A DNA stretch of 63,537 nucleotides, filler included, from Octopus bimaculoides (lineage: Eukaryota): the NCBI RefSeq assembly GCF_001194135.2. It is 8 parts of 8 records of this genome, joined end to end, with 100 filler letters (N's around TTAATTAATTAA, not from the genome) between each part and the next. Parts side by side here need not be neighbours in the genome. Positions count along the whole stretch, not along the records: positions 1 to 20,450 come from NC_068987.1; positions 20,551 to 35,344 come from NC_068994.1; positions 35,445 to 42,143 come from NC_069004.1; positions 42,244 to 53,405 come from NC_068996.1; 4 more parts are not named here. One strand, written 5' to 3'. Both the position numbers and the translations under genes were made by a program. This document shows positions 7,491 to 51,403 of the stretch, in pieces. The notes beneath the pieces were generated by a model. The model searched no databases and was not told the DNA's origin. It saw only the letters and a list, made by a program, of their open reading frames with translations. Every line of letters begins with the position of its first letter. Positions within the stretch are counted from its first letter, which is position 1.

Positions 7491-7534
7491 ACCTTAATCG
7501 ATTTTCGAACCTTATTGGGTTCTCATCAGAAGCG
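7491..7534 (-). ncRNA. Minimal type I hammerhead ribozyme, canonical core
   Basis: Minus strand: CGCTT CTGATGA GAACC-caataa-GGTTC GAAA ATCGAT TA AGGT. Full CUGAUGA/GAAA/UH core, 5-bp stem II, palindromic stem III (AATCGATT), 4-bp stem I with two G-U pairs. Confidence 0.85.
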
Positions 7535-7640
7535 CCCACATCACTTTGATAAACTCCAAAGGAGCAAGCACCCAAACTGTCTATATACTGAACAAATACA
7601 GCAGTTACTCAATGATGGAGTCCCTAATTTGCATAGGTGT

Positions 7641-7688
<48 letters not shown>

Positions 7689-8098
7689 ATATGTGTGTAT
7701 GTTTGTGTGTGTATGTGTGTATGTATACAGCAAAAGAGAGATAGAGAGAGGACAAAGATAAAATAAGACTAGAAAGCAGTTTTGCTGATTTACCTAGTGC
7801 GTATATATTTAACACACGTATCATGCGAACACATGAATCACACACACACCTACACACACATGTACACATATACTCCAACAGGCATCCGCACTGTTTTCCG
7901 TTGGCATAACAAATCACATGATATTAGCCAGATACCAAAGGCGCCGTGCAAAGGGAATGAACCCAGTGTCATGTAGTTACGAGACAAAATTCATAATTAC
8001 GATGCCATACTTCTTTGAGTTTGGTTGTGTGTGTGTACATATGAATAGATATACATATAGATAGGAAGATAGGTAGATACATGATAGATAGATAGATG

Positions 8099-8141
<43 letters not shown>

Positions 8142-8476
8142 NNNNNNNNNNNNNNNNNNNNNNNNNNNNNNNNNNNNNNNNNNNNNNNNNNNNNNNNNNN
8201 NNNNNNNNNNNNNNNNNNNNNNNNNNNNNNNNNNNNNNNNNNNNNNNNNNNNNNNNNNNNNNNNNNNNNNNNNNNNNNNNNNNNNNNNNNNNNNNNNNNN
8301 NNNNNNNNNNNNNNNNNNNNNNNNNNNNNNNNNNNNNNNNNNNNNNNNNNNNNNNNNNNNNNNNNNNNNNNNNNNNNNNNNNNNNNNNNNNNNNNNNNNN
8401 NNNNNNNNNNTATAGGGTAAATGCAGTCCCGCATTGAAATATTCTGACTAGAGAACTACAAAATTATTTATATACT

Positions 8477-8515
<39 letters not shown>

Positions 8516-10345
8516 TATATACACACACACAAACATACATATTGCAAAGTTATTAATCCATACAAATTGTTACTCTCCAAAGGCGACACAAAACGTACAT
8601 ATAACTCCCACTTCATACATACACATACAAATATTTATAAGCAAATACCATAAAAAGAAATGAATAAAATTCCATTTCAATAACCAGTCAAAGATTTATG
8701 GACACATCAACAGAGATATTATCCGATTACGGCTTATCATATCCTGCCTCTGTTTTCGCTAAAGTGTTTTCGAAACTCTCGCGAGAGTATCTCCGAGAAC
8801 TAGGAACAAGTTAGATATATTAATAAATGCGGGTTTTAGCTAAGTGAATATAGTGTCAACGCATATTTAGTTCTTTCTATCTGAATAACACAGCTGATAG
8901 AGTACGTAAATATGTATGCACGCAATTGTTGAGTTATACACACGCGCACACACACACACACAGACACCCCCCCACACACACACACACAAACATATACAGA
9001 CACACAAACTAATAGACAGACAGACAGCTATAAGTAATGTATATATGAAAGCATCATAGGAACAAAACCACAGTTATTTTGTGTTCTTTGCTACATTGGT
9101 TTCTATTAACCCATTTATTCTATCAGAAGAATTTTTATTCATTAAGATAGAAGAAATACACATAATTATATATAAATATNNNNNNNNNNNNNNNNNNNNN
9201 NNNNNNNNNNNNNNNNNNNNNNNNNNNNNNNNNNNNNNNNNNNNNNNNNNNNNNNNNNNNNNNNNNNNNNNNNNNNNNNNNNNNNNNNNNNNNNNNNNNN
9301 NNNNNNNNNNNNNNNNNNNNNNNNNNNNNNNNNNNNNNNNNNNNNNNNNNNNNNNNNNNNNNNNNNNNNNNNNNNNNNNNNNNNNNNNNNNNNNNNNNNN
9401 NNNNNNNNNNNNNNNNNNNNNNNNNNNNNNNNNNNNNNNNNNNNNNNNNNNNNNNNNNNNNNNNNNNNNNNNNNNNNNNNNNNNNNNNNNNNNNNNNNNN
9501 NNNNNNNNNNNNNNNNNNNNNNNNNNNNNNNNNNNNNNNNNNNNNNNNNNNNNNNNNNNNNNNNNNNNNNNNNNNNNNNNNNNNNNNNNNNNNNNNNNNN
9601 NNNNNNNNNNNNNNNNNNNNNNNNNNNNNNNNNNNNNNNNNNNNNNNNNNNNNNNNNNNNNNNNNNNNNNNNNNNNNNNNNNNNNNNNNNNNNNNNNNNN
9701 NNNNNNNNNNNNNNNNNNNNNNNNNNNNNNNNNNNNNNNNNNNNNNNNNNNNNNNNNNNNNNNNNNNNNNNNNNNNNNNNNNNNNNNNNNNNNNNNNNNN
9801 NNNNNNNNNNNNNNNNNNNNNNNNNNNNNNNNNNNNNNNNNNNNNNNNNNNNNNNNNNNNNNNNNNTATATATATATATATGCACACACAGGTATCTATG
9901 TTAAAAGATATAAATATACATGTGTTGGTATACGTATGTGTATCTATACATGGACTTATGTGTTAATATATATATGTATATACACACGCACACACACACA
10001 TATATATATATATACACACACATTATGAATGTTTACATATATAACTGTATATATGTAGTGCTATGTATAGTCGATAAAAACTTTTCGTAAAAAGAGACAA
10101 ATTTTCCTCTGCGTTGCCTGTATTACATTAGATTTTGCAACAGTTTATCAAGAATTATACACGATTATTTTATATTTATATGAAGATATATTTTGCCGTG
10201 ACCTGTGCCCCATTCATCCTTAACACTACTTGTCTTCTATACCAACTATGATGCATCTAAACACACACACGCACACTCATACACAATCACTCACTGTCAT
10301 AGACATTTACATACATACATGTGCAAATATGTATATATATATATT

Positions 10346-10404
<59 letters not shown>

Positions 10405-11663
10405 NNNNNNNNNNNNNNNNNNNNNNNNNNNNNNNNNNNNNNNNNNNNNNNNNNNNNNNNNNNNNNNNNNNNNNNNNNNNNNNNNNNNNNNNNNNNNNNN
10501 NNNNNNNNNNNNNNNNNNNNNNNNNNNNNNNNNNNNNNNNNNNNNNNNNNNNNNNNNNNNNNNNNNNNNNNNNNNNNNNNNNNNNNNNNNNNNNNNNNNN
10601 NNNNNNNNNNNNNNNNNNNNNNNNNNNNNNNNNNNNNNNNNNNNNNNNNNNNNNNNNNNNNNNNNNNNNNNNNNNNNNNNNNNNNNNNNNNNNNNNNNNN
10701 NNNNNNNNNNNNNNNNNNNNNNNNNNNNNNNNNNNNNNNNNNNNNNNNNNNNNNNNNNNNNNNNNNNNNNNNNNNNNNNNNNNNNNNNNNNNNNNNNNNN
10801 NNNNNNNNNNNNNNNNNNNNNNNNNNNNNNNNNNNNNNNNNNNNNNNNNNNNNNNNNNNNNNNNNNNNNNNNNNNNNNNNNNNNNNNNNNNNNNNNNNNN
10901 NNNNNNNNNNNNNNNNNNNNNNNNNNNNNNNNNNNNNNNNNNNNNNNNNNNNNNNNNNNNNNNNNNNNNNNNNNNNNNNNNNNNNNNNNNNNNNNNNNNN
11001 TATATATATATATATATATATATATATCATAGCCATGTCATTGAAATCCAAGATTTCACTAATGGAATTTCAGACGGATATACAAAACAACATAACATGG
11101 AAAAGGAATTATAAATATAGGAATGAAAAGAATGATAATAAAACACACACTAAAAATATATTAGTAAATAATATATAATATACACCAAACAGCAAGATAA
11201 TATATATACACAAATACAAAATATATGTTGGTCAACAGATCATTTGTGAAACACACAAAACACAACCGCATATGATGCGCATGATATTCACACTTGCCAT
11301 GAAAATATCCACATAGATACATGCATAACGTACATACATATACATACATATATTTTATATATGTGTGTATGTCCCAAATGGGGAAAGTTTTGCAGTGATT
11401 TGTATTTTACTTATGTGTGATGTTTTGTATGTTTTTAGTTGGTATGTTGCTGTTTAATTTGTTGTGCTGTTGTTTTGTTTTTAGTATGGTTGTTTTCTTT
11501 GAAATCTAAATAGATAAATCAGTTATCCTATACTGATGTAGAATTAAGGAAGTATATCATTCATAATGTTCTATCATTGGCTTTCTCTGTCTTTATCTAC
11601 GGCAAAGCTAAATCATCTTTACCCATATTTGTATACTCACTCATGTATATGTTCATATGTGTG

Positions 11664-49287: not shown

Positions 49288-49352
<65 letters not shown>

Positions 49353-49678
49353 ATGTATGTATGTATTTGTTTCTCTGCTATTCGTTTCATAATCCATCAG
49401 CCATCTTTGTAACTAAGCCATCTATATATCATTACAGTTTAACTCTGTTGCACATTACCATTTCTCTTTCTCACTCTACATTTATTTATCTTTTCTTTAC
49501 CTATTTATAAATCTCCTTCATAGATACACATACGCAAGTATTAGATGATTCTTACATACAGAGTTTAACGCGCACATACGCATATACATTTCATACTTAA
49601 TACGCACAACACTCATATATTTATAGACGCGCACACACACACACACACACACACATGCACACACACACACACGCACAT

Positions 49679-49724
<46 letters not shown>

Positions 49725-49972
49725 GTCGGTTGAACACACGCATGCGCGCGAGCACCTACACACACAATCGCACGCACACACGCACATATTTACACATACA
49801 TATATACATACTCATGCACTGATACCGAAATAATCTCAGACATTCCTGTTCAAATTTGTGAGACTGTACTTCTACGCAATTTAGTGTTTATATGTGTGTG
49901 CATGCGTTTATATCTGTGTGTATTCATATGTATGCGTGTATGATTGCGTGTGTATGCGTGTATGTGTGTGTG

Positions 49973-50016
<44 letters not shown>

Positions 50017-50580
50017 GCGTGCCGGTATTGACTCCTCTTTCTTATTACCTTTCAAATAAGCGTCAATTTCAACTTGACAATCTATTTTTATTCACTAATG
50101 AGGGATCTATTCTCTTGTCTGTGAGGAATATATCTCAACTACTTGCTCCAAAGAGCATTAAGTTACATAGTTTCTCTGTAGATAATTCTTCGAGATAATT
50201 ATTTTATCATGCGACTCTTTCGTGAATTTCCATGCGCTTTTTCTAATATTATGTGAGTGTGTGCGTGCGTGTTTGTGTGTGCGTGTATAAATTTATTAGA
50301 AAACATATTCACATATACATGCATACGTTAAAGCGTTTATATAATTTACTCGCACACAGAAATGTATGTCTAAACACACACACGCTCTCACACACACATG
50401 CACACACATCCATACACATGTATGTATACACGTAGAAATACGCATAATCTTTGAGTGTGTATAGGCATATATATAAGCAAGTATATATATTTGTGTGCAT
50501 AAAAATACATACATATGTACAGACATAGATAAACATATACACACATACATACATTCATGCATGCATACATATACACATAC

Positions 50581-50629
<49 letters not shown>

Positions 50630-51359
50630 CACACATACCTTCATGCATAAATACATACATATATACATTCATGCAAACGTACATACATACATGCTTACAT
50701 ACATTCATACATACATACATATAATAATATTAGGGACAAAATCCAAAATTACAGGTAAAAACTCAATTAAAATCAATTTATAAAAAATTATACTGATTTA
50801 TTGTGCTTTTAATTGTTAATTTTTCTGTATGTGATAGTGGATTTTCATTGATGAGTTCTTGAAACTTGGTTATTTTCCCTAAAACTATATATACATACAT
50901 ACATACATACATACATACATACATACATACATACATACATGCATGCATACACACACATACACATGGCCCAACCACTGGAATCGTTGTTGTGGCATAACGT
51001 GGGGGTCTGATGACTGAGTTCGAACCAAAACCTCATTTTGGTGATTCGGTCATTCCATTAGGTGTCCCGATTGGTTCTCAGACTGCATAGGTAGAAAGCA
51101 ATGGCGATGCCACTCTTATCTGGAGTAGATTCCTCCATAAAGTAGTGTGAACTGAAATTGAAGCTGTGCAGGCTATAACTTCTGTGCAAAGGGTCAGCTT
51201 ACATTTAAGTATTTGTTTTGCAAGATCCTGTTGCGAAATTGTGTGTTGAAACAGATATTGCTATTTTTCGGGATGGCCATTTATTTTTTCAAATAAACAA
51301 ATATACTGTTTATTCGCTCTTCACCTCAGATTTATAATTACTCTTATTTTATGTCCTTT

Positions 51360-51403
51360 GTCTGGAAATCTTTCGTCACACACCTTGTGACCTCTTCAGT
51401 GAC
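51360..51403 (-). ncRNA. Degenerate minimal hammerhead in a PLE-like pseudo-LTR (~51200-51470)
   Basis: GTCA CTGAAGA G GTCACA-aggtg-TGTGAC GAAA GATT TC CAGAC. Intact core and 6-bp stem II; stem III palindrome and stem I each damaged. Confidence 0.55.

Follow-up and report, generated by a model that had tools for sequence, protein, structure and literature searches.

Hammerhead-like motifs in an Octopus bimaculoides sequence as probable, mostly decayed ends of Penelope-like elements, with an abundant family whose two copies there carry U at core position 6

Introduction

Penelope-like elements (PLEs) carry minimal type I hammerhead ribozymes, which occur by the thousand, mostly as solo, truncated and variable copies, and which cleave weakly as dimers (PMC4209133). 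Several PLE clades target (TA)n, and a hammerhead has been tabulated for one Octopus PLE, Hydra-1_oBim of Octopus bimaculoides (PMC8557442, Files S1, S2). Here we describe a 63,537-nt stretch of O. bimaculoides DNA (assembly GCF_001194135.2; eight parts joined by filler), referred to as the window, in which a preliminary description had flagged nine hammerhead motifs. These are most probably the mostly decayed 3' ends (pseudo-long terminal repeats, pseudo-LTRs) of PLEs and their non-coding derivatives, belonging to several families, rather than parts of a working host system.

A PLE protein has been shown to cut AT-rich DNA, to prime near the RNA 3' end and to assist its own hammerhead; insertion in vitro is undiminished in dead hammerhead mutants, and RNA-seq ends at the cleavage site were not found (PMC11167929). 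Animal retrozymes have been described as PLE derivatives (PMC7229834; 10.64898/2026.07.22.740005). In O. vulgaris, PLEs make up 6.83% of the genome and fall into 190 families (PMC13282606), and the supplement of that paper contains no mention of ribozymes. No genome-wide survey of cephalopod hammerheads was found in the literature; Lunse et al. 2017, Repbase or Dfam may already include these families.

Hammerhead motifs in the window exceed chance as a set

A hammerhead-like type I arrangement is present at all nine flagged coordinates (Table 1), within 54,666 called bases, in line with the roughly 55 kb given earlier. Motifs were scored with a descriptor of the type I fold, which comprises a CUGANGA or UUGANAA core with at most one mismatch, an optional unpaired base, helix II and GAAA, followed by a palindromic or hairpin helix III, a UH site and helix I. 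The descriptor was composed from published features, but after the motifs had been seen. At a score of at least 18 it found six sites in the repeat-masked window, whereas 300 local dinucleotide shuffles gave 0.18 on average and never as many as six, and it found no site in the reversed window. Of the six sites, five had been flagged; the remaining one, at 34865 (+), was considered as a tenth motif and set aside as likely chance (score 18, U3-G8 core, AATATT palindrome, weak helix I; 0.24 chance matches per window).

A simpler test, for an exact core with helix II and GAAA, gave four sites against 0.54 expected and a maximum of three in 200 shuffles; with one core mismatch allowed it gave 11 against a mean of 4.9 and a maximum of 13, which is not clearly beyond chance. 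The comparison with shuffled sequence that the preliminary description had proposed leaves an excess standing for the set. For single motifs the picture is uneven. The number of chance matches expected per window at each motif's score is 0.000 for 7491 and 35141, 0.025 for 17641, 0.115 for 17998, 0.24 for 48286, 1.6 for 20233, 6.2 for 24428 and 9.7 for 14532, while 51360 is not scored by the full descriptor. By score alone, 7491, 35141 and 17641 are strong. Other evidence backs three more: 20233 lies behind a PLE gene, 24428 is homologous to 17641, and family data support 17998. Both 51360 and 20233 pass the exact-core test. Seven of the nine are well supported in this way, and 48286 and 14532 are weak.

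Table 1. Coordinates of the motifs, repeats and coding remnant discussed in the text (positions along the window)
Feature	Position	Strand	Support or context
Short, highly abundant repeat (copy truncated at its 5' end)	17593..17767	+	a (TA)n run on either side
Minimal type I hammerhead fold, U at core position 6 (17649)	17641..17677	+	score 22
Older, decayed copy of the 17641 family, U at position 6	24428..24463	+	helix II retained via G-U pairs
Retrozyme-like unit, ~348 nt, 1.17 copies	17833..18237	+	masked self-BLAST; flanked by (TA)n
Type I hammerhead, exact core, 6-bp helix I	17998..18050	+	family majority
Broken PLE gene 3' end	19562..20086	+	Pfam GIY-YIG, E 1.3e-07
Decayed hammerhead, known U3-A8 core	20233..20269	+	exact-core test; position
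Minimal type I hammerhead, best preserved	7491..7533	-	score 30, no equal in 200 shuffles
U3-A8 core hammerhead	35141..35182	-	score 27, no equal in 200 shuffles
Decayed hammerhead	51360..51403	-	exact-core test passed, full descriptor failed
Weak motif, G at position 6 of a U3-A8 core	48286..48331	+	score 18
Weak, heavily decayed hammerhead-like motif (14532), doubtful	14520..14590	-	score 3

Only 7491 has the whole published consensus, the other eight deviating in core or helix. The core (CUGANGA or UUGANAA) plus GAAA is exact in 7491, 14532, 17998, 20233, 35141 and 51360 (six of nine); core position 6 is off-consensus in the others, being U in 17641 and 24428 and G in 48286. Helix II begins with G10.1-C11.1 in five motifs (7491, 17641, 20233, 48286 and 51360), and this pair is G-U in 17998 and 24428 and lost in 35141 and 14532. 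Helix III and a UH site closed by helix I are complete in 7491, 17641 and 35141, where helix III is a palindrome, and in 48286, where it is a hairpin and helix I is weak. They are damaged in 20233, 24428, 51360 and 14532, and restored in the family majority of 17998. A (TA)5 run lies within 250 nt downstream of five of the nine motifs, as against 17.6% of random positions (P 0.011, with a cut-off picked afterwards).

Rfam reported no hammerhead in the window at the gathering score, and none at E values up to 10 in three short stretches containing four of the nine motifs. At the same E value the whole window gave 373 matches, and the 150 of these that were listed are nearly all microRNA models on microsatellites. 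The earlier claim that standard annotation misses these motifs thus holds for Rfam; the kind itself is known, since PLEs are annotated and the Hydra-1_oBim hammerhead is listed. It had also been stated that stems and flanks are mostly unrelated. There are indeed several families, but 17641 and 24428 belong to one (69% alike over 125 nt).

A truncated PLE gene and its hammerhead

The coding remnant at 19562-20086 encodes the end of the reverse transcriptase (RT) thumb, a C-X4-C-xx-C linker and a GIY-YIG endonuclease, and is damaged by one in-frame stop and a 12-codon deletion. Its product shows 63% identity to an RT-bearing protein and 44% to an Argonauta hians protein. The closest relatives carry PF00078; in the window copy itself the RT has been truncated away. 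A C-terminal GIY-YIG domain behind a CX2-5CxxC linker marks C-terminal EN+ PLEs of the Neptune/Nematis type (PMC8557442), and both are present here in that order.

The 20233 motif starts 150 nt behind the GIY-YIG stop on the same strand. It has a 4-bp helix II from G-C and a AACCGGTT palindrome, with a damaged cut site or helix I, and its U3-A8 core is a variant that has already been published (PMC4209133). Gene remnant and motif together are read as a 5'-truncated, dead PLE with its pseudo-LTR. A profile built from 14 relatives, all of one PLE group, detected no further gene remnant of this kind in the window, and no PLE relative was found in viral contigs.

A 348-nt unit with a restored family fold

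The 348-nt unit is bounded by 58-nt direct repeats (17833-17890 and 18181-18237). Its window hammerhead at 17998 has two helix III mismatches in addition to the G-U pair at 10.1-11.1. Family data were obtained by aligning four public runs (DNA contigs and RNA reads) to 17593-18238. By summed DNA contig depth, the family majority has G-C at 10.1-11.1 (77%) and closes the two helix III mismatches (90% and 75%). Three pairs are thus restored in the majority, which provides independent evidence that the fold is real and that the window copy has decayed. As regards the within-family covariation raised in the preliminary description, the restoration is single-sided at all three pairs, with no two-sided change seen.

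Elsewhere the unit continues head-to-tail, as seen in four DNA contigs with matching spacer letters and in two back-running joints. Two complete motifs in tandem were not seen in any one record, and the window locus has one hammerhead. The unit is non-coding, falls within the 150-450 nt range of retrozymes, has low GC (0.33-0.37 in 2-kb bins) and occurs head-to-tail. RNA depth on it does not exceed about 14 reads for every 1.7-1.9 billion bases sequenced, and neither a back-joint nor an end pile-up was found in RNA (two raw runs of unstranded fragment libraries, which are ill-suited to circles).

An abundant family with U at core position 6 in both window copies

The 17641 motif sits about 120 nt before the 3' end of the 17593-17767 repeat, and in DNA contigs other copies of the family reach further 5'. 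It has a 5-bp helix I, an unpaired A after A9, a 4-bp helix II from G-C and an ACGU palindrome, with a predicted UC cut site after 17672. The core was read as CUGUUGA with an unpaired A because both helices then form. The alternative reading UUGAAGA (U3-G8) was rejected, since helix II is then missing and helix I is preceded by a gap of 3 nt. So read, 17641 agrees with the published PLE consensus everywhere except at A6, which is U.

Summed DNA contig depth for this family reaches up to 3.1 million, compared with 34-69 for single listed contigs; summed depth is not a copy number, but values like these point to tens of thousands of copies, and the same order follows if the one near-majority copy in 55 kb is scaled to 2,459 Mb of contigs. 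The 17641 copy stands close to the family majority, more than half of the aligned RNA reads being at least 95% alike to it. The family is abundant in RNA, on both strands, and 70% of its reads continue into dissimilar sequence; it is therefore probably read through as part of host transcripts. A scan for the family pattern gave no match in viral contigs or prokaryote genomes; the single match in metagenome contigs lies in a coding-like stretch and is due to chance. Translated copies were not found in protein databases, where one unrelated repeat protein matched.

U6 is present in both window copies and in a consensus of 16 loose-end DNA contigs, and position 6 is C in one contig of a related organism (organism C). 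Position 17649 is absent from the 40 listed of 157 differences between the family data and the window copy, the listed ones reaching at least about 63% in some run. None of these 40 falls in the helices of the family. Position 17 changes from C to T in 21-33% of organism A (reads and contig depth) and in 95% of organism C, both letters being allowed.

Changes at A6 have been reported to give low activity, and a natural A6C variant has its preference moved to Mn2+, keeping Mn2+-dependent activity (PMC3088659, PMC7151607). In minimum-energy folds of both window copies, U6 lets U4-U7 pair with A14-16.2, giving a predicted rod that hides the core, and the 4-bp dimer helix of 17641 is predicted to compete with the 4-bp rod helix. 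Little or no cleavage is predicted for the two window copies. RNA ends at predicted cut sites had been put forward as a check, and no pile-up is seen for 17641 or 17998 in two raw RNA runs. At 17672 there is none at a depth above 2,000, with the deepest bin spanning the cut site, although unstranded fragment libraries make this a weak test. A loose RNA end at 17660 (265 and 360 reads, one flank sequence) was rejected as a cut site; it points to one transcript or subfamily and differs from 17672. A literature search found no natural A6U hammerhead.

Remaining motifs and neighbouring repeats

The motif at 7491 has a 5-bp helix II from G-C, an 8-nt palindromic helix III, a UA cut site after 7495 and a 4-bp helix I that includes two G-U pairs. 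Its predicted homodimer pairs the palindrome and lies 7.5 kcal/mol below two monomers. In 35141 an ACCGGT palindrome is accompanied by a 4-bp helix I, with (TA)n 126 nt downstream. The 51360 motif has an exact CUGAAGA core, an unpaired base, a perfect 6-bp helix II and GAAA, and its helices I and III are broken. The weak motif at 48286 has a 4-bp helix II and (TA)n 74 nt downstream, and that at 14532 has an exact CUGAUGA core, a 7-bp hairpin with an unpaired base, and GAAA followed by CCGG. Directly upstream of the latter lies a self-inverted, decayed stretch (14595-15121, 59% over 553 columns), possibly a miniature inverted-repeat transposable element or an inverted PLE arrangement.

The window is AT-rich and microsatellite-dense, a mosaic of mobile-element remnants (fragments of RT, mariner and Tc5 type); repeat families were found by masked self-BLAST. 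One (TA)n-adjacent family has two copies that are 89% alike, at 3754-3912 (-) and 22900-23046 (+), and partial copies at 24-98 and 5507-5614. The microsatellite is preceded, at a distance of 128-158 nt, by an exact CUGAGGA with a short hairpin and GAAU; A15.1-U16.1 is lacking. With this motif at the usual place of a hammerhead, the family is possibly a more derived relic. A family resembling short interspersed nuclear elements (SINEs) has about ten partial copies (20820-21001, 23963-24408, 27549-27699, 36295-36594, 47582-47978, 51465-51905, 63303-63481 and others), and one of them adjoins each of the 24428, 51360 and 14532 motifs. A second dispersed short repeat has about seven partial copies, including 572-1168, 38231-38420, 47993-48209 and 54865-55493, one copy of which stops 80 nt before 48286.

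Related fragments of long interspersed nuclear elements (LINEs) with RT and a PHD-like finger (Pfam RVT_1, PHD) lie at 25491-27070, 31100-32590, 61452-62530 and 21049-22690, and are presumably of RTE type. Transposase remnants of mariner/Tc1 and Tc5 type are found at 15756-16118, 32453-32857 and 43845-44138. A 230-codon open frame at 56287-56979 (+) has no Pfam match at E 0.1; we take it, by eye, to resemble a LINE apurinic/apyrimidinic endonuclease. A 105-nt palindrome at 36762-36866 is 82% self-complementary. The stretch 20451-20550 and seven similar places, each of 44 N, a 12-base stop-codon spacer and 44 N, are filler and not biology.

Origin of the motifs

The link to PLEs and retrozymes drawn in the preliminary description is supported by the GIY-YIG remnant, the head-to-tail 348-nt units, the consensus match and the presence of several families. 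Its picture of a working ribozyme system is not supported, as most copies are solo and decayed and no RNA end pile-ups were seen. Decayed PLE ends could have arisen as follows. The PLE protein would nick AT-rich DNA, often at (TA)n, reverse transcription would begin near the 3' end of the element RNA, and most copies would stop early. Because the motif sits about 70-240 nt from the RNA end, even short dead insertions would deposit a hammerhead. In parent elements the ribozyme would cut a tandem precursor RNA, as dimers where helix III is a palindrome only (7491, 17641, 20233 and 35141) and as monomers where it is a hairpin (the 17998 family), and solo copies, having no partner in cis, would decay. 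The 17641/24428 family was probably amplified with U6, its cleavage predicted to be slowed and an inactive rod favoured, which would mean copying in trans with no need for its own cleavage.

Several points weigh against this account. The family data cover two of about eight families. A PLE coding remnant stands beside one of the nine motifs (20233), and the parents of the other eight were not seen with a profile from one group. Both 14532 and 48286 may be chance; by score alone they are indistinguishable from it. In the 348-nt unit, the window letters at 18026 and 18042 mostly persist in the sparse RNA reads and in the one contig from organism C, which implies a subfamily with weaker helices. 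The RNA libraries, being of the unstranded fragment type, are weak for cut ends and circles. The case for U6 rests on two window copies, the 16-contig consensus and absence from the listed differences, and the roughly 63% lower bound of the latter means that A6 may persist as a minority or near-half letter.

Chance look-alikes in AT-rich, repetitive DNA would explain why 14532 and 48286 score within the shuffle range, why the one-mismatch simple test stays below the shuffle maximum and why Rfam finds nothing, and a descriptor written post hoc favours such a reading. However, neither the 300 shuffles nor the reversed window reached the observed count, the 17998 family restores its pairing and 20233 lies behind a GIY-YIG gene. 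Chance is refuted for the set, for which it is extremely improbable, but may account for a member or two. An active retrozyme system, whose units would at present be transcribed, cleave themselves and circularise at high level, as they do in coral, mussel and axolotl, would fit the 348-nt unit, which is near the 350-390 bp of mussel retrozymes (PMC7229834), its head-to-tail copies and the three-helix majority fold of the 17998 family. That family alone is where such activity is most plausible, but the very low RNA depth, the missing back-joints and end pile-ups in libraries of this kind, and the single hammerhead per locus, with no tandem pair of complete motifs in any record, make it a doubtful explanation with little probability.

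The U6 family might instead be a working core variant or a regulated switch, cleaving as a dimer with PLE protein or Mn2+, with the rod as its off state. All other consensus features of 17641 are intact and near the family majority, position 17 varies among allowed letters, the natural A6C retains Mn2+-dependent activity and a PLE hammerhead is protein-assisted (PMC7151607, PMC11167929). On the other side, unvarying helices in a young family are uninformative on selection, no compensatory change was seen, RNA ends are lacking at 17672 at the depth given above, and the rod helix competes with the dimer helix; we consider a working U6 hammerhead highly improbable. Mostly decayed PLE ends and their derivatives thus remain our preferred explanation.

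The U6 finding is the part of the result most worth following up. Taken together, the data could describe an octopus-type genome in which some hundred thousand hammerhead relics or more escape Rfam, and whose most successful family, of tens of thousands of near-identical copies and shared with a related species, is fixed for U6. Such a family would be either the first working eukaryotic A6U hammerhead (off as a rod-shaped monomer, on as a dimer or with the element protein or Mn2+) or large-scale proof that PLE-type amplification needs no self-cleavage. We hold this combined view only tentatively and think it rather unlikely. It touches on the purpose of PLE hammerheads, and a high-copy family with a changed core beside intact-core families in the same genome allows the importance of cleavage for amplification to be tested directly. 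For annotation, a descriptor of structure makes it possible to assign short repeats of no known class to PLE ends where Rfam misses the motifs.

Comparison with known systems

The class of motif is known; what is new is its density in O. bimaculoides and, possibly, a U6 family spread without efficient cleavage. Seven supported motifs in 55 kb correspond to about 130 per Mb if the window is typical, a one-window extrapolation that is not directly comparable with strict published counts because decayed copies are included. Lunse et al. 2017 reportedly list about 150,000 hammerhead variants. The strict published count for Xenopus tropicalis is 9,000 (PMC4209133), and Rfam found 235 hammerheads in giant squid (PMC6962438).

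The window motifs share with the minimal type I hammerheads of PLEs the CUGANGA/UUGANAA core, the unpaired base after A9, G10.1-C11.1, the palindromic helix III, a U-rich 5' flank and an occurrence in many unrelated families of mostly solo, truncated copies (PMC4209133). They differ in that most window copies are decayed and in U6, which is absent from the alignment rows examined; the searchable supplement of the same paper yielded no cephalopod. With the Hydra-clade PLEs they share (TA)n targets, a hammerhead near the 3' end and a hairpin helix III (17998 majority and 48286), and the listed hammerhead of Hydra-2_aMil has helix II and III letters identical to those of 48286 (PMC8557442). Compared by eye with Hydra-1_oBim, however, none of the nine equals the listed motif, and the linker at 19562-20086 is of Neptune/Nematis type (PMC8557442).

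Animal non-LTR retrozymes resemble the 348-nt unit, which is non-coding and AT-rich, has one type I hammerhead and occurs head-to-tail elsewhere (PMC7229834; see also Li, Clavereau and Pollet 2026, 10.64898/2026.07.22.740005). In contrast to retrozymes, the window has only 1.17 units. The closest counterpart of the U6 core is the natural A6C variant of phage Bcep176, with which it shares a pyrimidine at position 6 in an otherwise complete core (PMC3088659, PMC7151607). The octopus family differs in having U (C in one relative's contig), in being a very high-copy animal repeat, and in a helix III that is a 4-nt palindrome only.

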